DNA of 64,000 nt, taken from contig CAJINV010000030.1 of the NCBI GenBank assembly GCA_905178155.1, positions 77,984-141,983 of the forward strand. The letters run 5' to 3'. This document shows, one piece after another, positions 1 to 40,245 of the stretch. The notes below the pieces were generated by a model. The model was not told the origin of the DNA. It did no database searches and saw only the letters and a program-made list of their open reading frames with translations. Origin of the DNA: Amoebophrya sp. A120 (Eukaryota > Protista > Dinoflagellata). The first letter of the stretch is position 1. Each line of letters starts with the position of its first letter. The position numbers and the translations under genes are program-made.

Positions 1-590
1 ACGCGAACATGTCGCGGGCAGGAGCCAGGACGCGACCATGCCGCGTCCAAGAGCCAGGACGCGAACATGTCGGGGGCAGGAGCCAGGACGCGGACATGCC
101 GCGTCCAAGACCCAGGACGCGAACATGTCGCGTCCGAGAGCCAGGACGCGGACATGCCGCGTCCAAGACCCAGGACGCGAACATGTCGCGTCCAAGAGCC
201 AGGACGCGAACATGTCGCGTCCAAGAGCCAGGGCGCGGACATGTCGCGCCCAAGAGCCAGGACGCGGACATGCCGCGTCCAAGACCCAGGACGCGGACAT
301 GTCGCGTCCAAGAGCCAGGACGCGGACATGTCGTGTCCAAAAGCCAGGGCGCGGACATGTCGTGTCCAAAAGCCAGGCCGCCAACATGTGCGTGGCGGGC
401 AGGAGCCAGGACCCAACATTTGGCGTCACAGAGCCAGGACGCCACCACTTGGGGTCCTGAAACCGGCACGCCAACATGCGGCGTCCAACAGCCGGACGCC
501 AGCATTTGGCGTCCCGCCCCCACGGCTGGAACGACAGCGCTTGGCGTTCCGGAGCCAGGACGCCAAAATGTGGCGTCCTGGAGCCGGGAC
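1..590. repeat. 29-bp GC-rich tandem array, copy 1 (runs off the window start)
   Basis: Unit ACGCGGACATGCCGCGTCCAAGAGCCAGG repeated. It contains the hairpin GGACGCG-n7-CGCGTCC and decays after ~420. Confidence 0.95.
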
Positions 591-796
591 CGACCGCTCG
601 CCGGAGCGGAGGGCTTCATGCCTGACTGTGAGATACATTGCAAGCTCCACAAACTCCAACGACGAATTCCAGCCGGAGGTCGTCGGAAGCAAGGCCGCTT
701 CTGAGGAGGGATACTCAGACGGCGCACCGCGTAGCGCTGTCATTTTTGCAGGGGCCACGAAAACCTGCCGTAAAACGGGCCCACAACAAACACAAG

Positions 797-1172
797 CTGA
801 GATACGAAATCCTGCTCGACCCTGATTTTCCCCCCGAAATCCCAGAAAAAGAGGTGCCGAGCCCGGAATTTCCCCCCGAATCCCGGGAAAAGTCCGTTCC
901 TGACCTTGAATTTTCCCCCCCGCACTTTTCCGAGGGGCGGCGAGCTGGAGTGTGGTTCTCCGAGAACCGCACTCGCAGTACCATCCCCACCCACTCCAAC
1001 CTGAGACACGAAATACTGCTCGGCCCTGATTTTCCCCCCGCAATCCCGGAAAAAGCAGTGCCGGGCCCGGAATTTCCCCCCAAATCCAGGGAAAAGCCTG
1101 TGCCTGACCTCGAATTTGCCCCACCGCGCTTTCCCTAGGAGCTGCTCGTTGGAGTGCGGTTCTCCGAGAGCC
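797..1172. repeat. Diverged ~205-bp tandem duplication
   Basis: CTGAGAYACGAAATMCTGCTCG..CCCTGATTTTCCCCCC...GGAGTG.GGTTCTCCGAGA occurs at ~797-967 and ~1001-1170. Confidence 0.85.
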
Positions 1173-1202
1173 CTGCTTCACCTGCTAGTTGGAGTGCGGT
1201 TC

Positions 1203-2730
1203 GATTCCACCTGCTTCCCGCCGGCGGGAAGCAGGTGAAGCTGGGGCGCCGATCTCGGCTCCGCCTGCTTCCCGCCGGCGGGAAGCAGGTGATTGAAGCT
1301 GGCTCGCCGATCTCGGCTCCGCCTGCTTCCCGCCGGCGGGAAGCAGGTGAAGCTGGCTCGCCGATCTCGGCTCCACCTGCTCCCCGCCGGCGGGAAGCAG
1401 GTGAAGCTGGGGCGCCGATCTCGGCTCCACCTGCTTCCCGCCGGCGGGAAGCAGGTGAAGCTGGGGCGCCGATCTCGGCTCCACCTGCTTCCCGCCGGCG
1501 GGAAGCAGGTGAAGCTGGGGCGCCGATCTCGGCTCCACCTGCTTCCCGCCGGCGGGAAGCAGGTGAAGCTGGGGCGCCGATCTCGGCTCCACCTGCTTCC
1601 CGCCGGCGGGAAGCAGGTGAAGCTGGGGCGCCGATCTCGGCTCCACCTGCTTCCCGCCGGCGGGAAGCAGGTGAAGCTGGGGCGCCGATCTCGGCTCCAC
1701 CTGCTTCCCGCCGGCGGGAAGCAGGTGAAGCTGGGGCGCCGATCTCGGCTCCACCTGCTCCCCGCCGGCGGGAAGCAGGTGAAGCTGGGGCGCCGATCTC
1801 GGCTCCACCTGCTCCCCGCCGGCGGGAAGCAGGTGAAGCTGGGGCGCCGATCTCGGCTCCACCTGCTCCCCGCCGGCGGGAAGCAGGTGAAGCTGGGGCG
1901 CCGATCTCGGCTCCACCTGCTCCCCGCCGGCGGGAAGCAGGTGAAGCTGGGGCGCCGATCTCGGCTCCACCTGCTTCCCGCCGGCGGGAAGCAGGTGAAG
2001 CTGGGGCGCCGATCTCGGCTCCACCTGCTTCCCGCCGGCGGGAAGCAGGTGAAGCTGGGGCGCCGATCTCGGCTCCACCTGCTTCCCGCCGGCGGGAAGC
2101 AGGTGAAGCTGGGGCGCCGATCTCGGCTCCACCTGCTTCCCGCCGGCGGGAAGCAGGTGAAGCTGGGGCGCCGATCTCGGCTCCACCTGCTCCCCGCCGG
2201 CGGGAAGCAGGTGAAGCTGGGGCGCCGATCTCGGCTCCACCTGCTCCCCGCCGGCGGGAAGCAGGTGAAGCTGGGGCGCCGATCTCGGCTCCACCTGCTC
2301 CCCGCCGGCGGGAAGCAGGTGAAGCTGGGGCGCCGATCTCGGCTCCACCTGCTTCCCGCCGGCGGGAAGCAGGTGAAGCTGGGGCGCCGATCTCGGCTCC
2401 ACCTGCTTCCCGCCGGCGGGAAGCAGGTGAAGCTGGGGCGCCGATCTCGGCTCCACCTGCTTCCCGCCGGCGGGAAGCAGGTGAAGCTGGGGCGCCGATC
2501 TCGGCTCCACCTGCTTCCCGCCGGCGGGAAGCAGGTGAAGCTGGGGCGCCGATCTCGGCTCCACCTGCTTCCCGCCGGCGGGAAGCAGGTGCAGCTGGGG
2601 CGCCGATCTCGGCTCCACCTGCTTCCCGCCGGCGGGAAGCAGGTGAACTGAAGCTGGGGCGCCGATCTCGGCTCCGCCTGCTCCCCGCCGGCGGGGAGCA
2701 GGTGAAGCTGGGGCGACGATCTCGTCTCCA
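1203..2730. repeat. 54-bp palindromic satellite, ~28 near-identical copies
   Basis: Unit GAAGCTGGGGCGCCGATCTCGGCTCCACCTGCTTCCCGCCGGCGGGAAGCAGGT. Most units carry the perfect 30-bp palindrome CACCTGCTTCCCGCC|GGCGGGAAGCAGGTG; a recurring variant has one T-to-C change. Confidence 0.97.
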
Positions 2731-2767
2731 CTCTCCAGCTGCTCCCCGCCGATCCAGAAAGACAAAA

Positions 2768-2983
2768 AAATTTGTAGTCGCGAATCCGCGATTACCAAAA
2801 TTTGTAGTCGCGGATCCGCGATTACAAAAATCTGGGAAAATTTGTAATCGCGGAGCCGCGATTACAAAAATCTGGGAAAATTTGTAATCGCGGATCCGCG
2901 ATTACAAAAATCCTGAAAAATTTGTAATCTCGGACTCGCGATTACAAAAATCCTGGAAATTTTGTAATCGCGGATCCGCGATT
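2768..2983. repeat. ~40-bp palindromic tandem repeat (5-6 copies)
   Basis: Core palindrome TTTGTAATCGCGGATCCGCGATTACAAA separated by AATCTGGGAAAA-type spacers. Confidence 0.92.
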
Positions 2984-3141
2984 CGCAGTTGTGACTCGTG
3001 CGGGCCTGTATGGGTAGATAGGTGAGTAGTTCCCGGGTGCGCGAGCAGGACCGACCACCCACCCGGGCCCGGACGGGTGCTCCGGCGGCTGGCCTTCGCC
3101 GGGATCCCCGGGTGCACAAACAGGACCACCCGTCCGGGCCC

Positions 3142-4090
3142 GGGGCGACGATCTCGTCTCCACGTGCCCCCCGCCGGCGGGGAGCGGGTGGAGCCGGGGC
3201 GGCGATCTCGTCTCCACCTACTCCCGCCGGCGGGGAGCAGGTGAAGCTGGGGCCCGGCGGGGAGCAGGTGGAGCTGGGGCAAGGATGAGTTGGGGCGACG
3301 ATCTCGTCTCCACCTGCTCCCCGCCCGCGGACGCGGACATGCCGCGGGCAGGAGCCAGGTAGGACGCGGACATGCCGCGGGCAGGAGCCAGGACGCGGAC
3401 ATGCCGCGCCCAAGAGCCAGGACGCGGACATGCCGCGTCCAAGACCCACCCAGGACGCGGACGCGCTGCGTCCAAGAGCCAGGACGCGGACGCGCTGCGT
3501 CCAAGAGCCAGGACGCGGACATGCCGCGTCCAAGAGCCAGGGCGCGAACGTGCCGCGTCCAAGAGCCAGGACGCGGACATGTCGCGTCCAAGAGCCAGGA
3601 CGCGGACATGCCGCGCCCAAGAGCCAGGACGCGGACATGCCGCGTCCAAGACGGACCCAGGAAGCGAACACGTCGCGTCCAAGAGCCAGGACGCGGACAT
3701 GCCGCGTCCAAGAGCCAGGACGCGACCATGCCGCGTCCAAGAGCCAGGACGCGGACATGCCGCGTCCAAGAGCCAGGACGCGGACACGCCGCGTCCAAGA
3801 GCCAGGACGCGAACATGTCGCGTCCAACAGCCAGGATGCGGACATGTCGCGTCCAAGAGCTAGGACGCGGACATGTCGCGTCCAAGAGCCAGGACGCGGA
3901 CACGTCGTGGGCAGGAGCCAGGACGCGGACACGTCGTGGGCAGGAGCCAGGGCGCGGACATGTCGTGTCCAAAAGCCAGGCCGCCAACATGTGCGTAGCG
4001 GGCAGGAGCCAGGACGCCAACACTTTCTTGGCGTCCTGAAACGGGCGCGCCAGCATGCGGCGTCCTGGAGCCGGGACGCCACCATTTGGC
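3142..4090. repeat. Degenerate 54-mer remnants followed by 29-bp tandem array, copy 2
   Basis: GGGGCGACGATCTCGTCTCCACC remnants at 3142-3325, then the 29-mer array from ~3329 to 4010. Its tail (AAAGCCAGGCCGCCAACATGTGCGT..) matches 369-470. Confidence 0.93.
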
Positions 4091-5253
4091 GTACACGTAG
4101 AGCGAGGATTTGCTTCTGTACTACACGACGATCGAAGTTGGGCTACACGTAGAGCGAGGATTTGTTTCCGTACTACACCTACACGACGAAACGTTGTCCC
4201 CGGCAACAGGAGATCGGATTTCGTCATGCTGGATTTCGACCAAGTGCTGGGTGAAGTAACAAAGGGTTAGTTCTTGTGCGACGATGACCATGATCCGGAT
4301 TTGTGTTGCAGACCTGTACTGGGACCGGACTGTATTCGAAGATATCGTATTCGATCTCCAAGATACCGGGTTGCAGTAGCAACCCGGCCGAGAAGAGCGT
4401 TTGCTCCGACGTCGTGAAGGTGCGATGAAGAAGGATTCCAGTGATGCAAGGAAGAAGCGAGCTAGATACTCATCGTCGTCGACGAATTACTTTTTACTTG
4501 TTTACAAGAATGGCAGGCGACTGTGCCCGGGCTGTGCCTGTACGCATTACGCAATAATGTTTTGTCACGCAATAGGAAGAATACAGAAAGCATTGTCAGC
4601 TCGGCTGATGTGCCCGATGGCTTATCGATGTTTTTTTTTTTCCTCCCGTTGCGGAAAATTGGTTTTGCTTTTGCAAGGTACTAAGAAGATGAATGCAAAG
4701 GCACCTACTTGCTTGGATGTTCCTGCGCACAGCTCGTCATACTGAGTTCTGGATCCCTGTTTGTGGAAAGTAAAAACGTTTACTTTCGAAGAAAAGAAGT
4801 TGAAGATCATGTTTTATTTTTCACGTTTTTTTTTTTTCGTGCTGAAAAGATGCCACGTTTTTTTTTTCGGTCACACGATCATCGAGATTCGCATGGCCAA
4901 ATGAAAGGCACTAAGTGAAGAAACACACGGAAATTTGAAGCTTCACGTCTGGCATCTTCGAGACAGGAACAGGTTCTTATTGAACTACAACTAGAGCACG
5001 AAGAATATGCTCAACGCCTTTGAAGATCATGTCCTTTTTTTTCGTGCTGGGTTCCTATTTTTGATTCAGTCGAGGTCTGCAGTTCTATTGTGTGTCGTGC
5101 GCATGTTTTTTTTCCAAGTTTGAACCTCGTTGAATAAAGAAAAATAGCACCGCATTTGCATATTCATAAATGTTGCACAGAGTAAACTTTTCCTCACTGT
5201 CTGTGAAACACAAAAAAGAAACATGAAGCCGGATACCAGTGACCAATGCCTGC

Positions 5254-5409: not shown

Positions 5410-8296
5410 CCTGTTTCCCGGGTTCGTTTGCTCCCGCACCGCGTCGATCGACCAGGAAAAGACGGACGGTACCAATGGAATTGCCATTTGTAAACTTTGT
5501 GTTGCTTCTTGTTCTTTGTTGAAATAGAAATCAATGCACAACATTGACCTAGTAGAGATGCAAAATAAAAGAACCTTTGCTCCTTGATTTTTATCGGTTG
5601 GGTTGTGTACATTTAAGAAACTTCTGTAGTTATATCAATGATTTCTTCACTGCACTGTCAGCTTTTCACCGAGCCCCGGGTCGCAGCATATTCGCAATGC
5701 ATAGCGGCACGCGCAACGGTGCCGTTCTCGACAGTGTTGGCAATATGGTTTGGAGGTGCAGTATCGGGACAAAACATGGAAAGGCGTGAGAAGGTGCGGT
5801 GGTCTGGAAGTTCTTCAATGTAGACTTTATTTTGCGAAGGAAGCTCTTCATTTTCTTGAAGAGTTTTTGTTTTAGTAATTTTGAATTTTTGGGATATGAC
5901 GTAAAGCCTTCCCTCGCACCTGAACTGTTTTTTTGCTTTATCTCTGGAGCTAGTTTTTTGAATTATTATCCTTAAGTTTCAGCTTTTGTCCGTTCTGTAT
6001 GTTCTATAGTCTTTCATCTTCATTCAAGTTTTTTTTTTAACGTTTCGCTTTCGCTATAAAGTATTTAGGTTTTCCAAGATGCAGCTGGTTTACAGGATTA
6101 CAGTCCCTGCTCACTGACATCAGTAGCTCGAGTCTCATCTACTCTCCTCCCCCTGCTGGTCTTTTCTTCATTCTGATGTATCTGCCCAGCGGTTCTTGAC
6201 AGTATAAGTTCTTTGTTGAACCACTGCCAGAACAAACAAGCGCTCCCCTTCGGCTTTCTACCATAATCCCGAGGGGATTGAGACCGCGCGCGCGTGAGGC
6301 CAGTATTACTCGATCAAAGTCCTAGGTATCTCTTCATAATGTTGTAGCCTTGCTCCTGGTAAATTGTCTCTTGTAGTGACTGCACTTTTGCTTTTTAGAC
6401 GTTTGCTAGAAAGACGTATATTTTTTTAAGAACGTAGCTACCGTGATTTTCTGTTACATGTATTAATCGATTCAGGCCGTTCCCATTCCTTGCGAAAGTA
6501 TCCGTGAGCGTGATTCTAATATCTTTAACCCCGGGGATCCACCGTGCTTTATTGTGGCTTTTATGAGTTGCCCTGGCATTATAAAGCATAATTTTAACAG
6601 TCTGCGAAAGGCATTAAAGTCAAGTATCCATATATTCGTTTATTTAAAACACACAAAAGTATATGAAAAAGTCGCTGGCGCGCTCAGCTCGGTATCAGCA
6701 ACATTGCAAAAATGTAGTTGGTCCGAGTTGATCCTGATCGTCCGTTTTCGTAAATACTTTTTTTCGCCTTATCCTTCCACAAAAGATCTACAGCGTAAAT
6801 AGATTTCAAGACTTCGAAAACAGACCAGGAAAAGGCTGGCCCCTAAGTGTCAGCCAAAAATATGTTCTTCTTCTGCCGATTCCTGATATGTCATCATATA
6901 TATATACAGTGCTCTACCTAAACTTCCCTTTGGGATTTTACTTTCTATATATCATCTTCCCAGCTACCCTTGTAGCAAGCTCCTTCATCACGACCAGGAA
7001 TTGCCTGTCCTTTGCACTTATTTTTTTTTTGCTTTCTTATTAGAACTACCGGTGGCGTTCTGGTACACTCGTCGCGTCACCAGCAAGCATCAAGGAAGAT
7101 AACTCAACGTTTCTGGACATCATCACAGTATTAAACCATCCATACCGCCATATACGCACTTATTTTTCACAAAAGGAATTCGAAGCGTTGCAGAAATGCA
7201 CTCGAAGTGCCAGTTCTAAAAAACTAAGTTCGTGCAATGGGTGTCAGTTCTTTCTCCGTCTCCTGAATTGATGATAACGTGAGGACGCTTGATGTTGCGA
7301 AGACGCCTTTCGGCAACTTCAAAATATCGGTCCTAAAAACTCTTCTGGCCCGCTAAGTGTAAGTTCCAGTATCTTTAATTGTCCGCTAAACGCTAGTACG
7401 CGCTAGATTTCTACCTCCCTCTGGGATTTCATCCATTTCACACAGCAATGTAGTCCGCGAAATTATGTACTTACTAGACCGTTTCTGATAGTCCGCGAAA
7501 TTTAGCCAGACATAAGCTCCACATATGACAAAGAACAGGAGGTCTTTATTGGCTCTGCTAGAAGGCCCCTGTTAGTTTATCTCGACTGTACAATTCGCCC
7601 GTCGTTGTTCTATTTGCTTTTGAAGACGAGGAACGACCGTGGGCGGAAACACAGCAAGATAAACCAGCAAGCACATAATAAACATGCACATGCAGGAATA
7701 AAGTACAGAAAGCCATAGCCAAACTCAATGTGAAAATGGCGAGATTGCCCTTTTCTGCCACAAGGAGTGAGATCAATGGCGTTCGAACGTGTTCCAGTTG
7801 TGAGTTACTTGCTGTTGCTTCCCATGTTCGTGAGTGCATGCTGTGGAAAACAAATAGCTTCTGAAAGTAAAAGAAGCGCCAAGAAAGGACAAGTTGAAAA
7901 AAAACGCAGTTTTGGTTTGCAAAAATCACGTCATGGTCTTGATGCCTGTGAAAGTGCTTTGGTTTGTCTGACACTTGTACAACACTTGGTTTGTCTGAAT
8001 CTTGTGCATCCGAAAAGATTGATGATTCCGTTGTAAAAAGACTCAGCAGGAGCTTCTCACATGTCTGTGAAATTCTCAATTCATGTTGGTCCAAGTTGCG
8101 ACTTAATGTTGTAAGGCGTCGTTGATTCCATAGGTGTTGGTGGCAGCACGGATGAAACAAAAGTCTTAGTTTCTAAGTCCAACCAGGTCGAAATAAAGTA
8201 GTAGAGACTTCTGGAAGCTTGCAACTACAGGCGTATATTCGGTTTTTCTTCTCCTCGCACGACACACACCACCTCGCACACAGCTGCATAGAAAAA

Positions 8297-9327
8297 ATGC
8301 CCGAGGCGCAGCAGCAGACCGTCGTTGCCGGCACGACGGTGCAGAAGCAGCAGGCTTCTCAGACCGCCGCCTCCACCAAGTCCAATTTTCAGAAGGTTTG
8401 CGAGTTCCACCAGGCGTTCGGGGTGAAACACACGGAAACCCCCCAGAACGACATCTTCGACGCTGATCCGAAAACCTGCAAGCTGAGGCAGGACTTGATC
8501 GCGGAAGAGCTGAAAGAGCTGTGCCAGGCCTTCAAGGAGAAAAATTTCATTGAGGTATAGCAATCTTAGTAGACTTCTCGGGATGTGATTGTTCTGAAAA
8601 ACTGCATTGTTGTTGACGTAGAAATGTTGTTTTTCGTTTTGAGGTCGTCTTGCATGTAATAGTGAAAAGTTACTGTCTACTATACAATACAGTCAAATGG
8701 TGCTTCCGTTCCAGATGAAAAGCAAAAGTGCAATCTTTTCATTGCATCACAATCACTTTCCACAACCTGAACCCTCTATACACCTAACATCCAGGTCGTC
8801 GACGCTCTGAGCGACATTCTGTACGTGACCTATGGTGCGGGCAGCAGCCTGGGAGTGGACCTTGACAAGGCCTTTGGTCTGGTCCACGAGTCCAACATGT
8901 CCAAGCTGTGCAAGAACGAGGCCGAAGCCAACCAGACCGTGGAATGGTATAAATACGATAGACTTGATACTGTTGCTTTCGAACTCTAAGTATGTCTGTT
9001 CCGATAAATGTGATTCTCAAATAAAACCAACCGCGAATGACGAGATAGTGTCCTCGTGGGGATAAAGTGATTTTGTTTTTGTCCAACGGAACGTGCATCT
9101 ACCGTTCATCACATGTCGTGGTAAAAATGGGTAGTACCAGAAGTCCTGCAAAAAAATACAGGTACAAGGCGAACAAGACCGGGCCGGAGGGGAAGTACCC
9201 CTACGACAGTCCGGCGTGGCGCAAGTCCGGCGACTACTACGTGGTTTACAACGAGTCCACGGGGAAGGTTCTGAAGTCCATCAACTACGCTCCCGTCAGC
9301 TTCAAGGCCATGCTTCCGCAGGCGTGA
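8297..9327 (+). CDS. MazG-like / PRA-PH family all-alpha NTP pyrophosphohydrolase (exons 8297-8554, 8795-8946, 9162-9327)
   Basis: Motifs FQKVCEFHQAFG, LIAEELKEL, VDALSDILYVTYG, VHESNMSK, TGKVLKS. Two GT-AG introns join the exons in frame, and intron 1 has a CCTAAC branch-like site. Confidence 0.9.
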
Positions 9328-10049
9328 AGGTTTTTTTTTGATACGGAAGATGACGGAAACTAGCCCGAGGAAATGTCAAACGTACAAAATGTTGAACAAT
9401 TCTGTGGTGTTGAAGGAGTTCTTGTAGCACACGAAGGCTGCGGCAGCTACTTCGGAGACGAACACTTCTTCTTTCATTACGAAATGAACCTTGTGATTTG
9501 GTATTGGATCATTGGTGCGCTGCGGCGGTATGGTGCACGATAAAGTAGAACTTTCTGGAATTCTGCGATTGATTTTGATGTCGAGAGAATCTATATTTTC
9601 TGATTACATAATTCGGCAACGACCACAGCTCTTGTAGATGGAAGTTGTTAACATCGGTTTTGATAAAGAATTTCCATCCACTGTACAGAGGTTTTTTTTG
9701 GAAGTTGAGCAGGTGCGGCGTGTAGAGAAATAAGTACTTAAAAGCGGCATTTAATTGCAATGTCGCCATCTCCGAAAAGCGCCCTACTCGAGTCGCCAAA
9801 AGATGTTCTAGGGACGAAGGTTTCTTTCACGAAGATGAAGTGCGTTTCGCGCGTGTTGACGTGGCGGAGAAGGGTTTGCTGAGATCCAAAATTTCCGTTC
9901 ACAAAGTTGAAAGATCATCAGCTGATTCATATTGGTCCATCATTTAACATGATGATCTTTGTCTTTTTCCCGTGTTTATGTTTTCGTGCATTGCTGCAAA
10001 ACGATTAACGCATTCAAATCTGAAAAAATCAACCCCATAGTCGCCTTTT

Positions 10050-10443
10050 CGGTTGGTGGCTTGAGTTCCAAGAGTGGCCAAGATGGAACCTCCGGTCCGC
10101 CACGTGTGATTTCTCATGCGTGTGCTGGACTAGAACCCTAAACCCAGTGCCTACCGGAGTGGCGCAGGCGGGTTGACCAGTCGCGCCAACTTCATCGGTT
10201 GGAAGATCCGCTTCGCGCGAGACAAGCGACGCCGTGCCCCGCATCTTCTGCCTTTGACCGGTTTTTTCCTGATTGGGTTTTTTTCTCCGCGGCAGGTGCC
10301 ATATCCGAAGATCGAGCAGTAGTCTAAACTCCCGAGGACTGCGTGATTGTACTTCTAGCAATAGATGCATTCTGCAGCTTCGGTCGAGTATTCTACCTGC
10401 ATTGTCTTTCCGAGGATTTTTGGCTAAACAAACCCAAAATCTG
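10050..10443 (+). ncRNA. Candidate telomerase RNA (boundaries approximate)
   Basis: AACCCTAAACCC at 10134-10145 (1.7 repeats complementary to TTTAGGG) directly follows a long hairpin at 10094-10131. Possible enclosing helix 10051-10058/10183-10190. No convincing ORF. Confidence 0.45.
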
Positions 10444-11025
10444 GTAAGTACGGGCGTCCGGGCCAGAACCGACAACCACTCTTCCTGCTGTTCTCCCCCT
10501 GTTCGACCTGCTTCCCGACGGCCGACGGGCGATCGCGCGTCGGGTTTTCGTTACTCTGGCCTGCGGTTGCTAGTTGTGCTGTCACTGTTGCGGGGCTTAC
10601 GGTCGTGTGGATCGAACGCGAAGAGGTCGTGGCGGCACCCGGCTTGATGTCAGGTCGAGATGTAAGCGGTTTCCTTCATTGCACTGAACCCTGTCTCCCG
10701 GACTGTCCTAGTGCAAGTGGAACCGTGAGTTCCGTGACCCAACAGTTTCTTTTTCTACAGAATGTTGGTGCTGGTGGAGATGACCTGCGCAGTGGATGTC
10801 GACCGTCAGAAGTATATGTGGTTGCGCAGTCAAGGAAGTACATACTACACTATTCACTCGTTTTAGTTTTTTTTGGCTGTTACATGAAATAAACGTTCTG
10901 TAGTTTCTGCATATTTCCGCTCGTGCGACTGCACTTTGACGTGCATGGTGATGAAGATGTTGAGTTTGCATGTTTTTTCTTGGCGAAAAAAAAATTCAAC
11001 TCAGATTCAGATTCAGCATGAGACG

Positions 11026-11352
11026 ATGCAGCGGCCAATTTGGGTCACGACCCCGAGCTTGCCACGGTTCTTGCTGCAGCTGCGACATCAGCGCGAAGAC
11101 CGGACGCCAGATTATGAAAAGACCCGGACGGTGCGGAAGAGCTTTACACCTGACAGCGAGTTGTTTCGAAAAAAATTGTTAATTCAAAGGTTAGAAAGAA
11201 GATCCTCGATACTTAAAGCAAAAGATGAAGATGATCCTAAAGACGTGCCAGCATCACATCCATATCTGAGTTTGTGCACTGCTGTTTCTGCCAACATTTC
11301 TCGATACATCAATCAGTTCTGGTACAGAAAAAACACCGTTCCTGCAGCGTAG
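11026..11352 (+). CDS. Small hypothetical ORF
   Basis: Open frame MQRPIWVTTP...; no recognisable motif. Confidence 0.25.
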   Translation: MQRPIWVTTPSLPRFLLQLRHQREDRTPDYEKTRTVRKSFTPDSELFRKKLLIQRLERRSSILKAKDEDDPKDVPASHPYLSLCTAVSANISRYINQFWYRKNTVPAA

Positions 11353-11415
11353 GTGAAGTCCTTTCGTCGAAAAACGCAGATCGTGCCCATCATAAGAGTT
11401 GCGATCTTCCCGCTG

Positions 11416-11417
11416 AC

Positions 11418-11459
<42 letters not shown>
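11416..11459. repeat. (CA)n microsatellite
   Basis: Direct dinucleotide run. Confidence 0.97.
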
Positions 11460-11460
<1 letters not shown>

Positions 11461-12292
11461 AGATCAGGATCTTCAGTTTTGCTTCGTGAGGATCTCACCA
11501 TGAGTTCTTTTTTCTGTTTTGATGTCCTTCAGAGATATCGTGTAAATAAGTCGTCGTATTTTATTTCCACCGCTGAAAAGATGGAAGAGGTTCGGAAGAT
11601 GATCACCGTTAGGTGGTTGACACTGTTACAATTCGCACCAAGACTGCGAATGCGATTGATATGGATTTTCTCTATATTACTTTGCTTCATGGATCCCAAC
11701 ATACTCCGGTGACAATCTTTCTGTCTTCTTTTGCAGGTCTTCTTCGTGTAAGGAGGTTGTATTTATCCCGGTGAAGGTCGGATATGATTTTTGATGCGTG
11801 CATAGCACGTGGACGCACTAGACATTCACTCAAATACACGTCCAAATTTCTGTCTGTCGATACAAGTAACCTGAATATCTGACGTCCTATAATGAAAGTA
11901 GCACTGGTGATCAAGCGACATAGACATACAAGTAAGTACTATTAGCGACATATTAGACATTCAAGTTGAAGACCAGCGACATAAACATTCTGCTTTGAAA
12001 GTATTAAAAAGTAGCTTCGACGAATCGGGTGCCTTGATGCGGCTGCAACCAGGCGGCGGGCGTCGACTTCGTTACAAGTTGGTAAAAATTTCGGCTTGGT
12101 AAAAAGATCGAGATAGCCGAATTACGCTTGTGCCTTCAAAAATTCTTTGAGTGCAGCACCGCCTGAGTGAACATCGGCACCGGCTCGCTGTCTCGCGTGA
12201 CCGGCGTCCATCTTGGCCGCACGCGACCAGGAACATCGTCTCTACTACTGTAGAAGTCCTACGAAAGAAAGACCGCAGCTGCGACACACCAA

Positions 12293-15200
12293 ATGAAGTT
12301 TGTGCACGAAGCCTACGATGCCCTCGCGGAGGCGCGGGGGGAGGCACTTGCCGCATTTTCGGATTCGGCGAACTACAAGTACGAGATGACGTACGATGAA
12401 TTGGTGGAAAAATCCAACCTCCTCGCCCTTCGCGTTCTGCAACCAGAGTTGGAGAAAATTGCAGCTTCAGCACATCAGAAGTGGAAGAGTAGCGACCCGC
12501 GCATTGAGTGCATGATCGGTTTGGATGTCTGCCGGTGCTCACCGTACTTTCTGCCGCTCGTCCTGGCCGTTTCCCGGGTCGGGGGAACCTGCGTCTTCCA
12601 CGTGCGTGCGGAAAACGAGCGGGAGCTGAGCGAAAAGGTAAGCGTAAGCTCTATTGCAGTGAGGCATTACAAATACCTTCTCTGAGCTGCTAAATTAGCA
12701 TTTACAAGTCCCAGTTTTCCTTTTGCCGAAATTTGTGATGCTATTATAATCCGATGCCGTTGCCGATAACTTTAACTATAACAGGAGCGAGCCGCGAATC
12801 TCCGGCGCAATACGCAGGTCACCGAGCTTGTGGATTTCTCCGTCACGGAAGAGCAGTGCAAAACGGTATGGGACAAAAAATCCGCAGGCCGGTCATCCGC
12901 GCCTTCCGCTCAAAATCCCGCAAGAACGGAGGGTTGTACGGCTTTGGAAGGCGACAGCGATTCGAGCGGGAGGAGTGCAAGTACTACAAGGATTCCTTCT
13001 AAAAATGAATCAAAATCCTGTAGTTCTGTTTGTTCAACTACATCCCTTTTTCTTTCACAAGAACTGTTAGGTGGTTGTACTGACACCGCGAGGACCGCAG
13101 CGTCAGCCCCTACAAGAACTCCGAAGATTTTCGCGTTGCTCTTCACGGGCGGCACAGTCCGAGAAAAGATCGCCGCAGTCTCGCACGGAATGTTCCTGCA
13201 CGAGGTGCAGCACTACCACAAAGTCCTTTCCCCGGCGCTCGAGGCTCGGATGCGCTCATACAATTTCCCCAAAGACCAGGTTCGGGTTTGCTGCAACACT
13301 TCCCTCACGTGGGCTGCGAGCACGATTGGGCAGATCAGCATGGCGTGCGGCTTCAAAGGCGCTGTGTTTTTCCTGGAAAGCCCAGATTTTCAGGAGCAGC
13401 GACGCTTGCTGAAGAAGCATGACATCACCGTGATCGGCGTGGCGCCGACGGTTCTGCAGGCGTTGGCACCAAACCGCCCTTCCGCGGACATTCCCACCGT
13501 GAAGCTGGTGTTCACGTGGGGCGAAAAACTGCGCCGCGACGTGCGGGCGCGCATGCGGGCGGACGGGGTGCGGGTGTGCAACCTGCTGATCGCGACCGAG
13601 TACTGGCTCTGCATGGTAGCTGTTGACGACGCAGACGAATTTTCGCTTGTTGACAGCGACTTTCTTCAATACATGCGCATACAGGACCCGGATACCTTGC
13701 GCAGCAGGGCCCCTGCGAAGATTCAAAGCAGTCTTCCCGGAGGGGCGGCAGCAGCTGCGTTGGGCCAGCGACTGGCAGAAGAGCGAGCTCTTCAGACCCT
13801 CGGGACGAACCCGACGACGACGCCGAGTCAGACGACTCACACATCCACTGGGGTTCTGTGCTTGCGTGGTGAGTTCGTCACTCCCGGATACTTTGACCTG
13901 GCGGCTGGAAAGATTGTTCCGCTGGACAACATCCTAACTCTCGAAGACGGGTTGGAGTATTTTAACACAAATGACCGAGTGGAGATCAAGTGCGATAATG
14001 TTTACGAGAGCAACAGCACAGAAAAAGATAAAGTCCCGGCACTGGAGATGCCTCCACGACAAGGACAACAGGACGTCCGGATTGTTTGTTTGGGACGCGA
14101 CGACCTCAAAGTGAAGGTGAACGTATCAAAAGTAAAAATGTCTGGGTCTGGAAGCTTGTGATGCTGGGTGGCGTCTTATGATGAGGCTACAAATGCTGGC
14201 TCAGCATGACAAGTCTCTGAGCTCCTGGGTGTTGCCTATTCTGCATGACAAACTGCGCTTCTGCATTGCAGAAAAACGGAGCTCTTGGGTAACGTGCATG
14301 ACTGACAAGCATGACAAACATGACTTCTTCCAGACCCAGACATTTTTACATTTGATAGAACGCAGAGATGATCGATCTGGGCGAGGTTTGCGAGAAAATC
14401 CTCGTCCTCTCCGATTGCGTCCGTGAGGCCGAGGTCATTCCGTACCGCGAGCAGTACCAAGTGAACGCGCCGTTGCAGTACCATTTTTTCGTTGTCTGTG
14501 GGAACAGTGCTTCTACACGTGGACGGCGGGGTGGACAAACGGCACGCAAGGGTGATGTCGTAAATCAGCTTCTGGATAACCGGGCATCCAGTTCATCTTC
14601 CTCCAGCCGGGAAAACCACGGTTCGCAAATGTTGATCGCAGAACGAACATTGAGTGCTGCATCCACGAGTAGTTCTTCATCTTCTAGCAGTTGTATTGTC
14701 AACCCCCGGACGTCGACGAGAGGACAGCAACTCCGACGCGGACCAACGCTCCTTTCCCCGGAGTTAGCACTGGAGATCCAAAAACTCATCCCCCGTGCGG
14801 AGCACATCCGGTTGCACTTTCGCTGCTCGCCGTTGCCACGGCGGGCGGGCACGGACAAAGTTGACCGGGAGGAGCTGCGACGCCAGTTTCACCAGGCAGA
14901 TTGCAGTTGGCCGTTGTCCGAGCTCACAACGGTTTTGTCACCGCAGAAGCTGGCCGCAGTTCCGCTGGAGATCCGTGCCCTGGAGCGCGGCACGCAGGAC
15001 CGATTCGAGGAGCAAGCCATGCCGGTGTTCTACAACATAGCGATGGTGCTGCTCGTTGTTTATTTGATTAACCCAGAAAACTGCCTGAGAAATATCTTCT
15101 TTTTCTACCCATTCCTGTACCAGGGACTGTATTTCCTTCTCTTCGACAACGATTGCACGGCGGGCGTAGTGCGGGAAAAACACACGAAGACGCCACTTCA

Positions 15201-18200
15201 TCTCCAGTTCCAGCCCTACAGTGATTACCCTGCGTACTGGAAGGAGCTGGTTTTTCGGTTCAGCTATTTTCTGATGGACAATCACTCCAACATGAGCAAC
15301 CACATTCCATTCAACGTGGTCACGTACAGTCTGCTTTGCTTTCTTTTGTGGAACAGGTTGCCAGTGGGAACCAGCATCTGCAACGTGTTCGACGCTGCGG
15401 TCAGCTGTGCGGCACACTTGATGTCCATGCTCATGTTCCCCACGACGGCGACCGATTTTATTCTTCATGCAAATCCGGTCAATGGTTCCTCTTCCTCCTG
15501 CTACGGCGATTTGATCGCGTCGCTTGCGGGCCTCGCTACAGGATTGTTTCCTTTCATCCTGTTTTGCTACGGTTTCGTCCGGCTGGTGCGGTACGAGCCG
15601 TGGCGCATTTTTGCGTGGCCCCCGGTTTTCTGGTGCACCATGATCGGAGAAAGCATCAGCCAGGAGGTCGGCTGGTGGCTCGAATACAAGCGCACTAACT
15701 TCGAATTCTGGTGCGGACTCTTCCGAGAATGGTATGCAAGAATAGAGATTTTATTTTTAGGAACAGCAACTGGAACTGCAAATCGAATTTCAGATCAAGG
15801 GTGGAGTGTGGTCTTCGATTTCGATCAAGATAAAAGCATGATTTTCTTGTCAGACTAGAAACTGTGCTTCAATATTCTATATTTCGCCCTCCACCTCCAT
15901 CTCCTCTCAGCATTTGGATTTTTAGCAGCTCCTCGTCGTAAATTTTCTTTTTTATCAAATCTTATCGCCAGGTTTTTTCTGCATCAGGAACCCTCCTTGG
16001 CAGAGACGCTGCAAGAGGTCGACCTGATGCGAAAAGTAAACCAGCCTCTGCTCTCCCTCGACAAATCGGTGATCAAGCAGCGCAGGGAGCGGGCGGGGTT
16101 GAGATTTTTGCGAAGGATAAAGGTTAAAAAGGGAATCGGACAGGAAAAACGCAGCGGCAGCTGCCGAGCCCGAACCAGCAACAAAATATCGCAGGAGCTC
16201 CGCGTTTCTCCCTTCCAGCGTCCCCGCCACCTTACGAAACTAGAAGCCAGACTTTTTCCGCCTCCTGCGAAGGAAGCCGACCAGCGAGCCCTTCGAAGAC
16301 AGCGCCTGGGACCTCCTTTGCGCGGCGGTGGCCGCCGTGGGTGTATAATTGCGCACAACGGAATGGTGTCGCACCCGTCTTCGTCAACGAGATCATCTGG
16401 TGCCAGAACCACGAATGCAGAAGGTAGAGAAGATGATGGAGAAACGACTCCGTCTTCCGAATTTGAAACCGAGGACGGGTTTTCTCTCGGGGGACGGGAG
16501 CCCGAAATGTGCTATTCCTGCAAGAGGCCCTCCTACTTTTTCGAATCACCGTCAGAAGCCACCTGCGCCGTTGAATTCCGGGAATACGACAAAAAGACGA
16601 TCCAGGCGAGCCGACCCCCGCAGCTGTGCGCGGTCTGCTGGGCGGACCTCGTCGCTGACACGGAGCTCGAGGCCGGGCGTGCCCTATTGGAGTGCCCGAC
16701 CGACGCAACCACCAAGTGCCTCCTCGGGGAGGCCAGCGTTGCGGCACAGCGGATAAAGGAAAATAGTGAGAGAGGATGTGTGCAGCAGGATGGAACAACA
16801 ACTGCGAGGGGGCCCAAGGGGAGTGCGCATAAGGTGTCCACCATGGCCGACAGAGAGAAAAGCATGCAGGCTGCACGAAACCTGCAGTGGATTCCAGCGG
16901 TAAGCAGAACGGCGTCCTCATCATCTGGATCGGCAACGTCGGGTAAAAGTAGATCCTACGCACCTCCAGTGGCGGAAGTCGTTGTAGCCGAAAATGCTGT
17001 AGCAGGTCTTGCACGAGGAACGACACAGGGTAAAAGTTGTAAGGCACAGGATGCAAGCGAGGTGGCGAACAGTGGTTTGTCACCACCGGCGCGGCGAACC
17101 AAAACTGGCGGCAGCCGAAGCACAGGCATTAAGGGCGAGCAGCCAACCCCCGCTGGTGCAGAGAAACAACGACGGAAAATCACAGATGAAACAACGTCAG
17201 ACGAAGGGCAGATCCACCTCGCGCCGTTTAGAATTGCTAGTTTTAGCATCGATTTTACCGAGCTTTTCAGAGTTGTTTTTGCCTTCCTGGTGTGGATCGG
17301 AAACACATTCTGCTGGATAGGTTTGAAGTTAGCGAGAGCGACTGGGTTCGGACGCTGGTTTGAAGGTGGCGAGAGCGACTCGATAGGTTTGAAGATGGTG
17401 AAGTCCGTGCAAGCGCTCTGGAATATACTCTCTATGGTATTCGAGGAATTGATCCCCCTTCCGGGCAAGGGCGAGGGCGGACTCGCCGCAGCGACCCCCG
17501 CACTGATCTGCGAACTGCCTCTCTGGCTCGTCGTCCGCATCCCGTGTTTTTCCTTCATGGTCTGCCTTTGGGTGTTGGACGCCGGTGTGACCGCTGGGTT
17601 GTTCCGAGAATTTGCACTTCCCGACTTCGTGCGGAAACAGGCTGTAGCCGTCTGTCAGAGCGTCAACGCTGCGCTGAAGTTTCTATATTCAAGCGCACCC
17701 GCGCCTGGTTCTTCCATGTCCGCCTCAGGTTCACGACGACAACTGCGCCTCGAAAGGGAAACTACAACTACAATAAGCGAAGAGCACCCGGCGCCCAACA
17801 AGGAACAAAACAAGCATGCGCACCGCAGACAGGGATACACCGAGGCGGATTGGGCAAAGTGGCAGGCTATGACGTGGGAGGAACAGTCTGCCTACTGGAA
17901 GCAACGGGAGGAGGAGAAAAAGCTGCGTAATGAACGGTGGGAAAAAGAGGAAAACCTGCGAAATAAGCTGTGGACTCTGGAGAAGGAAGTCAGAAACCTC
18001 ATCTGGGACCTCGAAGACGGCTACCGGATCATCTGGAGGGACCAGTCCCCGAACTCCTTTCTCGAGATGCCAGACGTCGTCAAAATGTTCGAGAAACTAA
18101 AGCACCAGCAGGCCCTCGCGCTCGCTGGTCAGCAGCATCTACTTCAGAACGGGACGCTGACGGGACAAGAAGGCAAAAATGGAATAAATGCGGGCGTACT

Positions 18201-21200
18201 ACAAAAAAACAAAAATCTTACGCCGCTCTCTGGGCCGCTGAGTGGAGAGCTGGCCGCGCTACTGCAGGAGAAGGTGGGTCGCGGCCTGCAAAACCTGCAA
18301 TTTCGCGAAACGATCTTAGACGGAGTGCTAGACAGCCTGTTGCGGCAAGAATTGGCCCAGGCCATCACGGATAAATTGCACCGGAAGGTCACAGTACAGA
18401 ACCTTTTGCCGATCGAGACCGTGGGAGGCCTTCTGCAGATGGTGCAGTCGGCGGAAGTAATCAGCGCCTCCAGCAATGAGATGGACCAGTTCGTCGCGAT
18501 TGAAGACACGAAAGACGGCGCCGACACGACAACTCGCAGCGCTGACGGTCGCGGCGCAATGTGGTTTGTGGGGGCCCACCACCAGCCCATGGGCAGTTGG
18601 ACGGTTGCGACCACTAGCAGTTACGATTTGGCGATACTGAATGCCGCGTTGCACGATGTGCTCCAGAAACACCCCGCGCTGCGCACGATCCTTGCCGACG
18701 GTGATATGTTCTTGCGACAGATCGAACAACCCGCGACCCAGTGGCGACTGTTGGCCCCCATTCTGCAGCGGTCTGCGCAGCAGATGAAACTCGGGAAACT
18801 AGGGGAGGACCCATCACAGCAGCCAAGCGGGAACAGTAGTACGTTGTAGCTGCTACATGTTGTCTGCATTCTAAATTTCCCTGTTTTTGCCCTATTTCGT
18901 CCCGTCGGTAAACTCATTTCATGGCCGCGGATGCGAACGAATGCTTTAGACCTCCCACAGTGAAATATGATTGTGCTTGTCGATCACGCTAGGCATATGT
19001 GGTGCAGCCGGAGAACAAGCTATGTTTGTTGTATTTGCAGATATTGGACGTCGAACACCCTAAAGCTTGATAAAGGTGAACAAAAAAAAGAAGCGCATGT
19101 CCTTGTAATACAAACTTTTCAGGCACCTCCGTAGCTTGTCCCGCAGATCATGGAAACAATTGGTTTGTCCAGGCTTTCGCGTTTTGCGTCGACGCTGTGG
19201 TTGCGATCGTGAACGCCTCATGGCAGGTGACGTGGCCAAAAATGGTGGTGCGGGATTGCGCGGACCTTCGAACGGCTAGCTCGAAGCGCTGCGTCGAGCT
19301 GGCAGACGACGACATTGTATCCTGTGCAAAAGTAGAGGTACCATACTCGTAGTAAACGCAATTATGCATTACAAATTTTTTTCTTGAGGGAAATCCGCAT
19401 TACAAATTTTATTTCTCACACTGAGAGACCGTGAGGGCCAAGATCAAGATGACACCGTGCGGACGACCACAGGGGGCCCGTCTAACAACAACATGCTGAG
19501 GAAATTTGTCATGCATTTATATTACGAGTACGATATTTTTGCTTTTGCACTTCATACATTGCGGCGTTTTACGAAGCAAATGGATACGTCTCTGACAGCG
19601 ACGAGGAAGAGGAATTTTTCCCGGACATAGGACACGATGAACAGTTTCGTGACGCAGACCACCACCCCGGCACTGGTTCCGTGGATCATGGCCCTCCGCT
19701 GGCCAATACCGCACGGAAAAAAACACTGCTCGCGGACGCCCTGACCGTCCATGATTTCCACGACGAAGATCTAGTGGACTGCGCGCTGGCGGACAAGAAA
19801 TCGGGACGGCACGAGGCGGCCAAGCGCTTGGGCTGCTTGGGAAACAAGAAGGGCACAAAGATTTACTTCAACACCTGCGAGGAAGACGTGGCTGGGAAAA
19901 CGCCTCTCGTGAGTGCGAACGACGAGGTGCGACGGTGGTCGGACATCCAGATGCTGCACCTCGATCGCCCCGAGCTCGGGCGCATGATGGAGGTGAAATT
20001 GGCGAAGTTTAGTTACGACACGCTCGCTAACTCCGTGTGGTCGATTGTGGATGGAGGAGGAGGTGACGATCCGTACAATTCCAGACAGCACTCGCAAGGA
20101 GGTGGCTCTTCCGTGGTGCAAAAGGGAACGACTTTTTCCATTCTGCGAGTGGCCGCGTCGACGAAGGTCGACCGGGCCCTGGGAGAGCAACTAAAGCTAA
20201 TATCGGATGAAATAATTGGCAGTGATGTTCTTCCCGGAGCAGGAGGAGCCGGAGCCAACACCAAGGAACTACTAGTAAACCACGGGAAAGAACATGGAGA
20301 ACAAACCAAGTTAATCCTCGTGAACCGCAGCGTAAAATCGCTGTGGGTCGGCGAGGTGGTGCCCTTCAACCACCCGGAGTTTGTCTCGCCGCCGCATCGC
20401 TGTGCCGCTTTCTGGTCGGTAAAGTGTATCGTGGTTCCAATCCGGTGCGCCCTCACGTACGAGACACCGACGCTCCCAACGTCACCGATAGGGTTAACTT
20501 CGAATATCAAAACAAGTCCACGAGGAGCAGGACAAAAGCCGTCTGGTGCTTCAGCATCGGCGCGGAAAAACGGTGCAGATGGTGTTGCGATTGGACCTGC
20601 GAGTAGTTCTTCTACACCGAAGAAAACTACACTTCGTTCACCTGAACGGAAGAGCGAAGGTCCACCCGCGGGCTCCGCTGATTCGGATGATGATTTTGCC
20701 GCGAGTAAAGAAGGGAGTCGCGGCGGTGATAATCAAGGCAGTGTTAGCGCATCTTCCGGCTCTTCGGCTGCTGAAGATGGAGCAGTCGGTGGTCGAAGAG
20801 GTACTAGTCTGGAATGTTCTTTACCTTCGTCCTCCTCAGACGACGACCATGGGATCAACTTTTGGCCAACCACGGACGAGGAAGATGACAAAAACTTTGT
20901 ACGGCAGAAGCGACAAAAGGGTAGTTGCGCTGCAGGTCGAGGACCAAAAAATTCTTGGTCTTCCTCTGATACAGATACCGATTACGGATTCTTCCCGCCA
21001 ACCACGGATGAGGAGGAGAAAAGCGAGATCGAAATAAACACGAGGAAAGGTGGGAAACCAGCGGAAAATAAATCTCCAACTGCATTTTGCGCCTCTTCGT
21101 GCTCTTCCGCAAGAGGAAAGCCTGCGGGAAGCGAACAGAGCGAGGAGCCGGCCCCGGGCGCAGCGGCAGCCGTGACAGCAGCCGAAGGGTCATCGGGAAT

Positions 21201-30949: not shown

Positions 30950-32353
30950 CGTGGCGACCCCGATCGAGCACCGCGAAGAACGTAACGCCTGCCGAGGGAC
31001 TCCGCCGCCGCGCCGTGGTCGAGCGCAGACCGGCCGGCGCGGGCTTGCGCAGATCCTCGCGCGAGCGAACTCGCGCGCAGCGCCGCCCCCATCGTGCCCA
31101 GAAGCTCGCCGGCCACTCAGCGCAGCGGGAAAAGTGCCGGCGGAGGTGCCTAATCTACTCGAATGCGTACGGCCTAGAGCTCGAGAGGGAGTGCGATAGC
31201 AGGGATAGCAATCCGCAGCAAAAGCGGCGGCGGCTATAGCGGAAGAAAAGGGGTGGGCCAAGATTCTGAGATCCGTAGCCGCCCCTCCCTCCGCTTCTTC
31301 GCTCCCCCTGTCAGGTGGAGCTGCTAACTTCCGTGGAGCCGTTGGGCGCTCTGGGCGCTGCTTGTGCCACCACGGCGCACAGCGGGCAAGGATCCGAGGC
31401 GGCCTGCCCAGTTAGTGGCCGGCGCGCCTTCGTTGGGTGGAGCAGATTGATTTCCAACGAGTTGCCCAAGTCGGAGAAGAATCGCGCCGCCCTTCGGCGG
31501 TCTGGGTGCGTATCCGGGTGGCGGGCCGCCCGGAAGGGCGCGGCCTCTCGGCGGTTGGCTCGTGATGCCCGCCGCGAATGGCCACGGGAGGGCGGGCCCC
31601 CCCCCCCCGTGTTTCCAGGTCCACGCGCTGAGGCGATGGAGCACGATCGACCCCCGTCCGGAGAGGTCCGGATACCACCCCGAAGGTGGTAGCATTTGTG
31701 ACGACGTGAAGGCGGCGCTCGCCCCTGCCTTCGTGCGCGGCCCCGTCCGCGCGGCACCGTGCTGCAGCCCGGCGCTGCGACCTCATGTAGCCAGAAGCCG
31801 TCTCCGCGAGCGAAGTAGACAGCGAACGCGGCCCCAGGCACGCCGAGGGCCCTGCAAAAGTTAGCGGCATGCCCGAGGCGCGCCCGTTGCAGGCCGGCCG
31901 CCCCTCCGTCCTCCCACTCTCTTGCGGCCCTTCTGGTGGTGGCCCGCCCATGTCGGCCGGCCGGGCGTGCTTGCCCGCGCGCCGGCGCGCGCAATTGCCG
32001 GGCCGCCTGCCCGGCGCGATTGGAGTCCCAATGCCGCCCCGCGGGTCCTAGCACGCCGGCCGCTGTGGTTTCCAATCTAGAGGACCAGGCGGGCGGTGTT
32101 TTGATATTGCCGGCGCCGTGGCCATTTTTGGCTCCGCGGCTGGCCGCGACCCCAGTGGGCCCCCTAGTGCGCAGTGCCACGCACGGGTAAGTGGCTTGCG
32201 CTCCTGTAGGAAACCAGCCCGGGCGCCAGTGCCTCGCTCCTGTGATTGGATTACTAAAGTATCAAACTGCTGTGCTAGTTGGTTCTGACGCACGCGTGGC
32301 TCCGCCCCCCGTAGTCCGCCCGTCGTACCACAGGAGCTGTTCTGGTTTTTTTT
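30950..32353 (+). ncRNA. GC-rich, hairpin-dense non-coding island; possible long structured RNA of unknown class
   Basis: Sharp GC rise relative to the flanks, many perfect stems, terminal stem 32236-32244/32329-32337 followed by T8 (32346-32353), and no protein-like ORF. Confidence 0.35.
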
Positions 32354-39040: not shown

Positions 39041-39903
39041 AGTGGGGACACGGCCAGGTGGGGACACGGCCAGGTGGGGACACGGCCAGGTGGGGACACG
39101 GCCAGGTGGGGACACGGCCAAGTGGGGACACGGCCAAGTGGGGACACGGCCAAGTGGGGACACGACGGCGGGTGGGGACACGACGGCGGGTGGGGACACG
39201 ACGGCGGGTGGGGACACGACGGCCGGCCAAGTGGGGACACGACGGTCGGCCAAGTGGGGACACGACGGCCGGCCAGGTGGGGACACGACGGCCGGCCAAG
39301 TGGGGACACGACGGCCAGCCAAGTGGGGACACGACGGCCGGCCGAGTGGGGACACGACGGCCGGCCAGGTGGGGACACGGCGGCCGGCCAAGTGGGGACA
39401 CGACGGTCGGCCAAGTGGGGACACGACGCACGGCCGGCCAAGTGGGGACACGACGGACGGCCGGCCAAGTGGGGACACGACGGCCGGCCAAGTGGGGACA
39501 CGACGGCCGGCCAAGTGGGGACACGACGGCCGGCCAAATGGGGACACGATGGCCGGCCAAGTGGGGACACGACGGCCGGCCAAGTGGGGACACGACGGCC
39601 GGCCAAATGGGGACACGATGGCCGGCCAAGTGGGGACACGACGGCCGGCCAAGTGGGGACACGACGGCCAGCCAAGTGGGGACACGACGGCCGGCCAGGT
39701 GGGGACACGACGGCCGGCCAGGTGGGGACACGACGGCTGGCCAAGTGGGGACACGGCGGCCGGCCAAGTGGGGACACGACGGCCGGCCAAGTGGGGACAC
39801 GACGGTCGGCCAAGTGGGGACACGACGGCCGAGTGGGGACACGGAGGTGGGGTCACGGAGGTGGGGACACGGAGGTGGGGTCACGGAGGTGGGGACACGG
39901 AGG
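39041..39903. repeat. G-rich composite minisatellite, core GTGGGGACAC
   Basis: Successive unit lengths of 16, 18, 23 and 14 bp, all built on GTGGGG(A/T)CAC; probably intronic. Confidence 0.95.
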
Positions 39904-40245
39904 TGGGGGCGCGAAGGCTGGTCCGAACGGAGCTGCAGAGGCAGATTTGGCCCCGGCGCCTCCGCATCTGCCGGTCAGACTTGCAGCTGCAATGGCGGGC
40001 TGGTCCGGTCTATATGCCCAGTATTTTATACTAATTTAAAAATGTTCCCTTTACATGAACTTTCTGGGAAATCCAAATGCTGAGATACGACACTCCCTGC
40101 TCGATTTTTTTACCGCTGTGGAAGTTGCATTATTTTCAATGTTCCTCGTAAGAATTGCATTTGCAGCAACCGCAGAAGCGGACAGCACTTCGGAAAAACA
40201 TTCATTTGCGCATGGCTTCCTGGTGGTTGAGCATCTCTTGGATAG

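Follow-up and report, generated by a model that had tools for sequence, protein, structure and literature searches.

Does a transcript in this part of the Amoebophrya sp. A120 genome contain the RNA component of telomerase? Passages of two papers describe TTTAGGG telomeres and telomerase activity in dinoflagellates (PMC11508785, PMC9498494). Because dinoflagellates have telomerase activity, a template RNA should exist. The initial annotation, which proposed a telomerase RNA gene at this locus, knew of no characterized telomerase RNA from the lineage. Our literature search likewise found none described for any dinoflagellate among the matches listed (dinoflagellate and alveolate scope; subscription papers and further supplements lie outside it). 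Excerpts of a promoter-based survey of Diaphoretickes (PMC8287931) and of a second paper (PMC12133305) do not contain the terms dinoflagellate, Apicomplexa or Plasmodium. We therefore analyzed the window, i.e., the whole stretch of 64,000 nucleotides around the locus, and compared the locus with eight of 13 listed sequencing runs. In our reading, the locus probably encodes a telomerase RNA of A120-type Amoebophrya that is long and trans-spliced, in the style of trypanosomes and Leishmania. The coordinates of the relevant features are collected in Table 1.

Table 1. Features of the candidate telomerase RNA locus and its upstream neighbour (positions in the window).
Feature	Positions	Strand	Remarks
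Upstream neighbour, PRA-PH/MazG-like mRNA	8134..9699	+	ATG at 8297; two GT-AG introns; 163-nt 5′ UTR; used as control
Trans-splice acceptor CCCCATAG	10033..10040	+	leader joined after 10040; transcript body from 10041
Unspliced transcript	10041..11409	+	at least 1.3 kb; contigs of runs X3 and X5
Predicted core-enclosing helix I	10082..10196	+	GATGGA 10082-87 / TTCATC 10191-96; pair probability ~0.3 with template open
Template-adjacent hairpin (helix II), predicted template-boundary element	10094..10131	+	16 bp; -20.5 kcal/mol
Candidate template AACCCUAAACCC	10134..10145	+	1.7 repeats of TTTAGGG; register of the predicted P. falciparum template
Predicted helix III hairpin (10159-10190), or H-type pseudoknot	10148..10190	+	hairpin pair probabilities 0.6-1.0
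Sm-like ATTTTTGG, likely non-functional	10416..10423	+	U-tract lost in X7 and X9
Intron-like stretch GTAAGT...CTACAG	10444..10760	+	retained in X3 and X5 contigs (no joint)
Orphan open reading frame (ORF135)	10945..11352	+	135 aa

A template-like 12-mer lies close to the 5′ end of a trans-spliced transcript

A motif check of the window recovered every motif that had been named for the locus, i.e., AACCCTAAACCC, the long hairpin, GGTTGGTG, CGCCAACT, ATTTTTGG and GTAAGT. The template-like stretch AACCCTAAACCC comprises the 12 nt at 10134-10145 and is the sole match of at least 9 nt to the TTTAGGG register within the 64 kb. None of 100 order-3 simulations contained such a 12-mer, and its analytic chance is 0.004-0.05 per 64 kb. 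For a genome of 115 Mb, the size that we assumed for this estimate, the analytic expectation rises to 8-92 chance copies. Because of these expected copies, the 12-mer taken singly is weak evidence and the context has to decide, which bears out the initial caution that it may have arisen by chance. Cytometry of A120 gave a genome size of 125 Mb, according to a passage of the genome paper (PMC7789003). In the same paper, a passage by Farhat et al. reports the A120 telomere repeats as TTTAGGG and TTTGGGG at three scaffold ends (PMC7789003), in agreement with the repeat that had been presumed for the lineage. One supplementary file of that paper holds no mention of telomeres or TERT. With the repeat taken from PMC7789003, the 12 nt of the candidate template complement 1.7, hence at least 1.5, telomere repeats of the organism.

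Transcription runs in the sense of this C-rich template. In the contig of run X7, the loose 5′ end CCGTAGCCATTTTGGCTCA precedes the AG at 10039-10040. We take CCGTAGCCATTTTGGCTCA to be the dinoflagellate spliced leader. Since this leader precedes the AG, the RNA begins at 10041 on the + strand, and the contigs of runs X3 and X5 start at 10039 as well. DinoSL trans-splicing has been reported in Amoebophrya, with TCAAG as the last bases of the leader, in a passage of PMC7789003. The distance from the leader junction to the template is 93 nt, and within the first 606 nt of the transcript every + strand ATG ORF is shorter than 25 aa. The number of loci expected to combine by chance a 12-mer, a sense position within 150 nt of a 5′ end and a hairpin of the kind described below is 0.001-0.016 per genome, with thresholds chosen post hoc and a gene number derived from a passage of PMC7789003.

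The transcript is long and unspliced. Culture run X3 gives a single contig over 10039-11409 with 0 differences and no joints (9700-10038 are without cover), and a contig of culture run X5 covers 10039-11346 unspliced. Run X5 acts as RNA, because it shows the upstream gene with both of its GT-AG introns spliced out. The runs X3-X6, which are one sample, each hold 0.73 of the sequence words, compared to 0.74 expected for an unspliced stretch. X7 (an environmental 454 run) and X9 (Illumina) belong to separate studies and represent wild relatives of the window. At the locus, the raw-read runs X11, X12 and X13 gave 0, 2 and 0 reads, and nothing matched in the DNA run X10. Cover of the locus comes from contigs, which cannot show where a transcript ends. 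The putative 3′ end of the transcript lies near or inside an AC repeat at 11416-11459; absent cover at 11420-12400 was not scored as a transcript end. Judged by these features, the RNA would be made like an mRNA, that is, by RNA polymerase II, trans-spliced and probably polyadenylated, like the telomerase RNAs of Trypanosoma and Leishmania.

The mRNA of the upstream neighbour also starts after a CCATAG acceptor (8126-8133 there, 10033-10040 here). Exon 1 of this neighbour matches a protein named Amoebophrya sp. A120 with 100% identity across 98% of 87 aa. Directly upstream of the acceptor at the candidate locus, a C-box-like ATGATGA and a D-box-like CTGA are found within 9944-10027; for this stretch, Rfam returned just a chance-level SNORD18 match (E 6.7).

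Several further features mark the surroundings. The PRA-PH/MazG-like pyrophosphatase (8297-9330) and a dUTPase (42893-43444) both have a high GC3 of 0.80-0.93. At 12293-18849, an ORF with an AMP-binding domain is followed by long ORFs without Pfam matches, possibly forming one large multi-exon synthetase-like gene. In the very GC-rich stretch at 31900-32320, GCCATTTTTGGCTC at ~32121 is similar to a portion of the spliced leader, and a GGTAAGT follows at 32186. GC-rich tandem arrays with units of 29, 42, 54 and 40 bp occupy positions 1-4092; the 54-bp unit is present in 28 copies and contains an inverted repeat, and the arrays may represent subtelomeric or satellite DNA. At 39042-39908, where all six frames are open, GTGGGGACACGG units of 14, 16 and 23 bp form further arrays.

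A rare hairpin is predicted next to the candidate template

Helix II stops 2 nt short of the template. The long hairpin that had been described at this place is indeed present and rare: an equally stable hairpin ending 0-4 nt before the site occurred at 26 of 2000 random window positions, at 5 of 629 GC-matched positions and at none of 21 unrelated template-like matches. Pair probabilities within helix II reach 0.79-1.0 when the template is kept open. Its role as a template boundary is predicted from this placement. The boundary motif C(U/C)GUCA of ciliates and Leishmania is absent at this hairpin.

The surrounding core fits less well with what had been proposed. GGTTGGTG at 10051 and CGCCAACT at 10184 can be drawn as a GGTTGG/CCAACT helix that encloses the core. 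We rejected this helix, since its pair probability did not exceed 0.01 in any of six folds and forcing it costs 3 kcal/mol. The CTCCGGT/ACCGGAG helix, mentioned initially as an alternative, fared better in part. It reached a probability of 0.7, though in the short free fold only, where it displaces the base of the helix II hairpin; with the template open it stayed at 0.1 or below. A model with helix I, helix II, template, linker and helix III would describe the core better than the enclosing helix of the initial annotation. In this fold prediction, a 13-nt linker leads from the template to helix III. Alternatively, an H-type pseudoknot without a U-rich loop may form from the pairs 10148-52/10166-70 and 10160-65/10183-88, starting 2 nt after the template. 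Under criteria set post hoc, 32 of 1500 random positions were followed by a similarly shaped pseudoknot.

In most of the regions folded without constraint, the template was partly paired, and opening it costs 2-5 kcal/mol. The fold z-score of 10041-10443 is -2.7, and 120-nt windows at the core reach just -1.5 to -1.9. No Rfam telomerase model matched at the gathering score, and relaxing the limit to E 10 brought up nothing relevant. Alternatively, the transcript may be some other structured lncRNA with a spliced leader, in which the telomeric 12-mer is incidental. The absence of a family match, the 8-92 chance 12-mers in a genome of such size and the weakness of helix I would all be in line with it. 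It leaves to be explained, however, why a template, an adjoining rare hairpin, a 5′ position and a Plasmodium-like register occur jointly, and we regard it as quite improbable.

The Sm-like site and the splice donor are unlikely to form the 3′ end

The initial annotation had placed the 3′ end of the RNA at a perfect GTAAGT donor at 10444, preceded by an Sm-like site, in analogy to the spliceosomal 3′-end formation of fission yeast TER1. According to this view, the telomerase RNA would be only ~400-425 nt long, cut at 10443 by the first splicing step and protected by an Sm ring, and the 1.3-kb form would be its precursor. The donor is present and perfect, it lies 20 nt past the AU5G motif, and poly(A)-type data would show an unspliced precursor. 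However, the U-tract of the Sm-like site is missing in both wild relatives compared. X7 and X9 are ~99% identical to the window upstream of the site, yet beyond 10411 both carry AGGATTGGCTAA in place of the window's GAGGATTTTTGGCTAA, so that five U in the window become two. The Sm-like site is therefore unlikely to act as a 3′-end signal.

The donor itself is frequent by chance. GTAAGT occurs 14 times in the window (8 on the + and 6 on the - strand) and AT4-6G 53 times on the + and 61 times on the - strand; the pair of an Sm-like motif followed by GTAAGT occurs twice on the + strand. No splicing at 10444 is seen in X3 and X5, in contigs that may miss rare isoforms, and the transcript reaches at least 11409. 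The contigs of X7 and X9 end near 10427-10432, close to the donor. These ends were not scored, as both are loose-ended and X9 is a 198-nt low-depth piece; the length of the X7 contig is near what we take to be the 454 read length. The complement of the GTAAGT donor resembles the 5′ end of U1. A minus-strand U1 snRNA at the donor was considered and rejected, since Rfam gave no match and the leader lies on the + strand. A passage of PMC7789003 states that U1 snRNA was undetected in A25 and A120, and the TER1 mechanism is described for fungi in the excerpts consulted. It is hence unlikely that Sm proteins bind the RNA or that the spliceosome cleaves it at 10443. We count this short form, which is a variant of the telomerase RNA explanation, separately and give it a very low probability.

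A downstream open reading frame raises the possibility of an mRNA leader

The refuting possibility raised at the outset was that the region is only the 5′ UTR of a downstream mRNA. In that case, an ordinary trans-spliced mRNA would encode an orphan protein of 135 aa, the candidate core would belong to the long 5′ leader of this mRNA, and 12-mer and hairpin would have arisen by chance. ORF135 is indeed an annotated protein in public sets. Its length was reached in 27 of 500 shuffles (it is longer than in the other 473), and its stop-masked frame score of 0.043 exceeds that of 18 of 46 coding pieces and was reached by 17 of 300 null ORFs. The coding signal is ambiguous. The log-odds of ORF135 lie below those of all 46 coding pieces, yet above those of all 60 non-coding pieces. 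Its GC3 of 0.49 compares with 0.54-0.93 in 12 training ORFs. The leader would measure 904 nt and contain 10 upstream ATGs, compared to 163 nt in the neighbour. Relatives of ORF135 at near or longer lengths were not found, and its Atlas model has a pLDDT of 0.54 and no feature match. Such a lack of relatives may weigh little, as 54% of the A120 genes are species-specific and relatives are thus often absent (passage of PMC7789003). The annotation pipeline of A120 selects the longest ORF of each transcript and discards ORFs without introns only if they are shorter than 300 nt (passage of PMC7789003). For this reason, the annotation of ORF135 is not independent evidence. In sum, we consider an ordinary mRNA leader, the main rival, unlikely, although it is the part of the initial caution that retains some weight.

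ORF135 may be real, decaying or a chance product. The telomerase RNA of Ustilago maydis is reportedly processed from a protein-coding mRNA (PMC9564094), and given this precedent a real ORF135 would be compatible with a telomerase core on the same transcript.

Relatives hint at constraint

We compared 10041-10411 with the X7 contig and found 4 differences in 371 positions; the 5′ UTR of the neighbour, whose X7 control contig has a depth of 2.7 and stems from a mixed sample, has 7 in 112. This contrast gives a Fisher p of 0.004 as counted and of 0.035 when three adjacent changes are taken as one event. Including the 3′ indels, p becomes 0.01-0.15, or 0.07-0.15 if the adjacent changes are also one event. 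The lower divergence of 10041-10411 is therefore a hint of constraint. Two of the four X7 differences are listed, neither of them within 10041-10254, and two are unlisted and lie near contig ends. The listed variant 10255 T>C breaks a predicted pair, and 10378 C>T retains its pair as G-U.

Diverged homologues were not found; the relatives located are all ~99% identical. With the antisense frame 10032-10550 as bait, 252 pattern matches in metagenome contigs contained 0 relatives and the protein representatives contained 0 proteins. A search with the leader-plus-template pattern gave 17 loci, of which 16 lack the full leader and none resembles the transcript in more than short stretches, and a 16-mer search of viral contigs gave 10 loci, all unrelated. 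Among the metagenome material, contig L015 (1-1701) carries a cluster of 5S rRNA, SRP RNA, a spliced-leader gene and a second 5S rRNA. Here, the full leader is followed by GT at ~1475-1500, and about four AACCCTA telomere-type repeats lie ~60 nt downstream, internal to the contig.

The candidate resembles kinetoplastid telomerase RNAs in mode and Plasmodium in register

A spliced leader on a long transcript and a 5′-proximal template are kinetoplastid-style; the likeness concerns the mode and is no homology. Trans-splicing also applies to Leishmania TER, whose template is at position 85 in L. major (passage of PMC4229120). As far as the excerpts describe them, Leishmania TER and T. brucei TR share with the candidate the spliced leader, a length of at least 1 kb, the 5′-proximal template, a template-adjacent helix II and a downstream hairpin. 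T. brucei and ciliates have the core order helix I, helix II, template, helix III (passage of PMC5175330). The T. brucei core is described in these excerpts without a pseudoknot. Kinetoplastids belong to another supergroup and use another leader, so the likeness would be convergent. The candidate further differs in its 7-nt repeat and in the missing C(U/C)GUCA at the hairpin, and eCR4/5 and C/D box are not established.

Plasmodium (Myzozoa) is the nearest lineage with a described telomerase RNA, and its RNA is long too, ~2.2 kb in the excerpt. The predicted P. falciparum template is ACCCUGAACCC (passage of PMC5550746); it has the same register, with A where the candidate has G. The likeness thus comprises register and length, and the spliced leader of the candidate is a difference. 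Ciliates such as Tetrahymena are alveolates as well and share the order helix I, boundary hairpin, template, helix III or pseudoknot. Ciliate telomerase RNAs are, however, short and made by RNA polymerase III from a type-3 promoter (passages of PMC8287931 and PMC12133305), whereas the candidate is trans-spliced, ~10 times longer and without a match to the Rfam models. As for S. pombe TER1, the genome sequence of the candidate has a 5′ splice-site consensus behind a U-rich motif, but the U-tract of the candidate is unconserved and neither cleavage nor splicing was seen. As in U. maydis, telomerase RNA and an ORF would occupy one transcript, but the Amoebophrya core lies on the 5′ side of an ORF without known relatives.

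Taken together, the repeat, sense transcription, the leader, the rare hairpin and the Plasmodium register support the initial proposal of a telomerase RNA; the TER1-type biogenesis that came with it is unsupported and the enclosing helix disfavored. The telomerase reading is strengthened by the register, the non-coding 5′ part and the hint of constraint, and weakened by ORF135, by the partial pairing of the template and by missing covariation, as no diverged homologue turned up. We favor, on balance, a DinoSL-trans-spliced RNA polymerase II product that arose independently of trypanosomes, kept the myzozoan register and maybe shares its transcript with an ORF.

In such a telomerase RNA, the transcript would receive the spliced leader at 10041 and stay unspliced over at least 1.3 kb, with the predicted template core in its first 160 bases. 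TERT would bind this core, which helix III and the short helix I may close into a compact ciliate- or trypanosome-like form. The telomere 3′ end (…GGGTT) would pair with the 3′ part of AACCCUAAACCC. TERT would then copy toward the template 5′ end, the hairpin at 10094-10131 would halt copying, and TTTAGGG would be added in each cycle.

If true, this would be the first dinoflagellate telomerase RNA, and the RNA polymerase III telomerase RNA of ciliates would not be the rule among alveolates. The candidate is also relevant to the question which RNA polymerase, II or III, made the telomerase RNA of the ancestral alveolate. With a mapped candidate in a culturable strain, the question is directly testable, and the locus may serve as a seed for searches in core dinoflagellates and Perkinsus.
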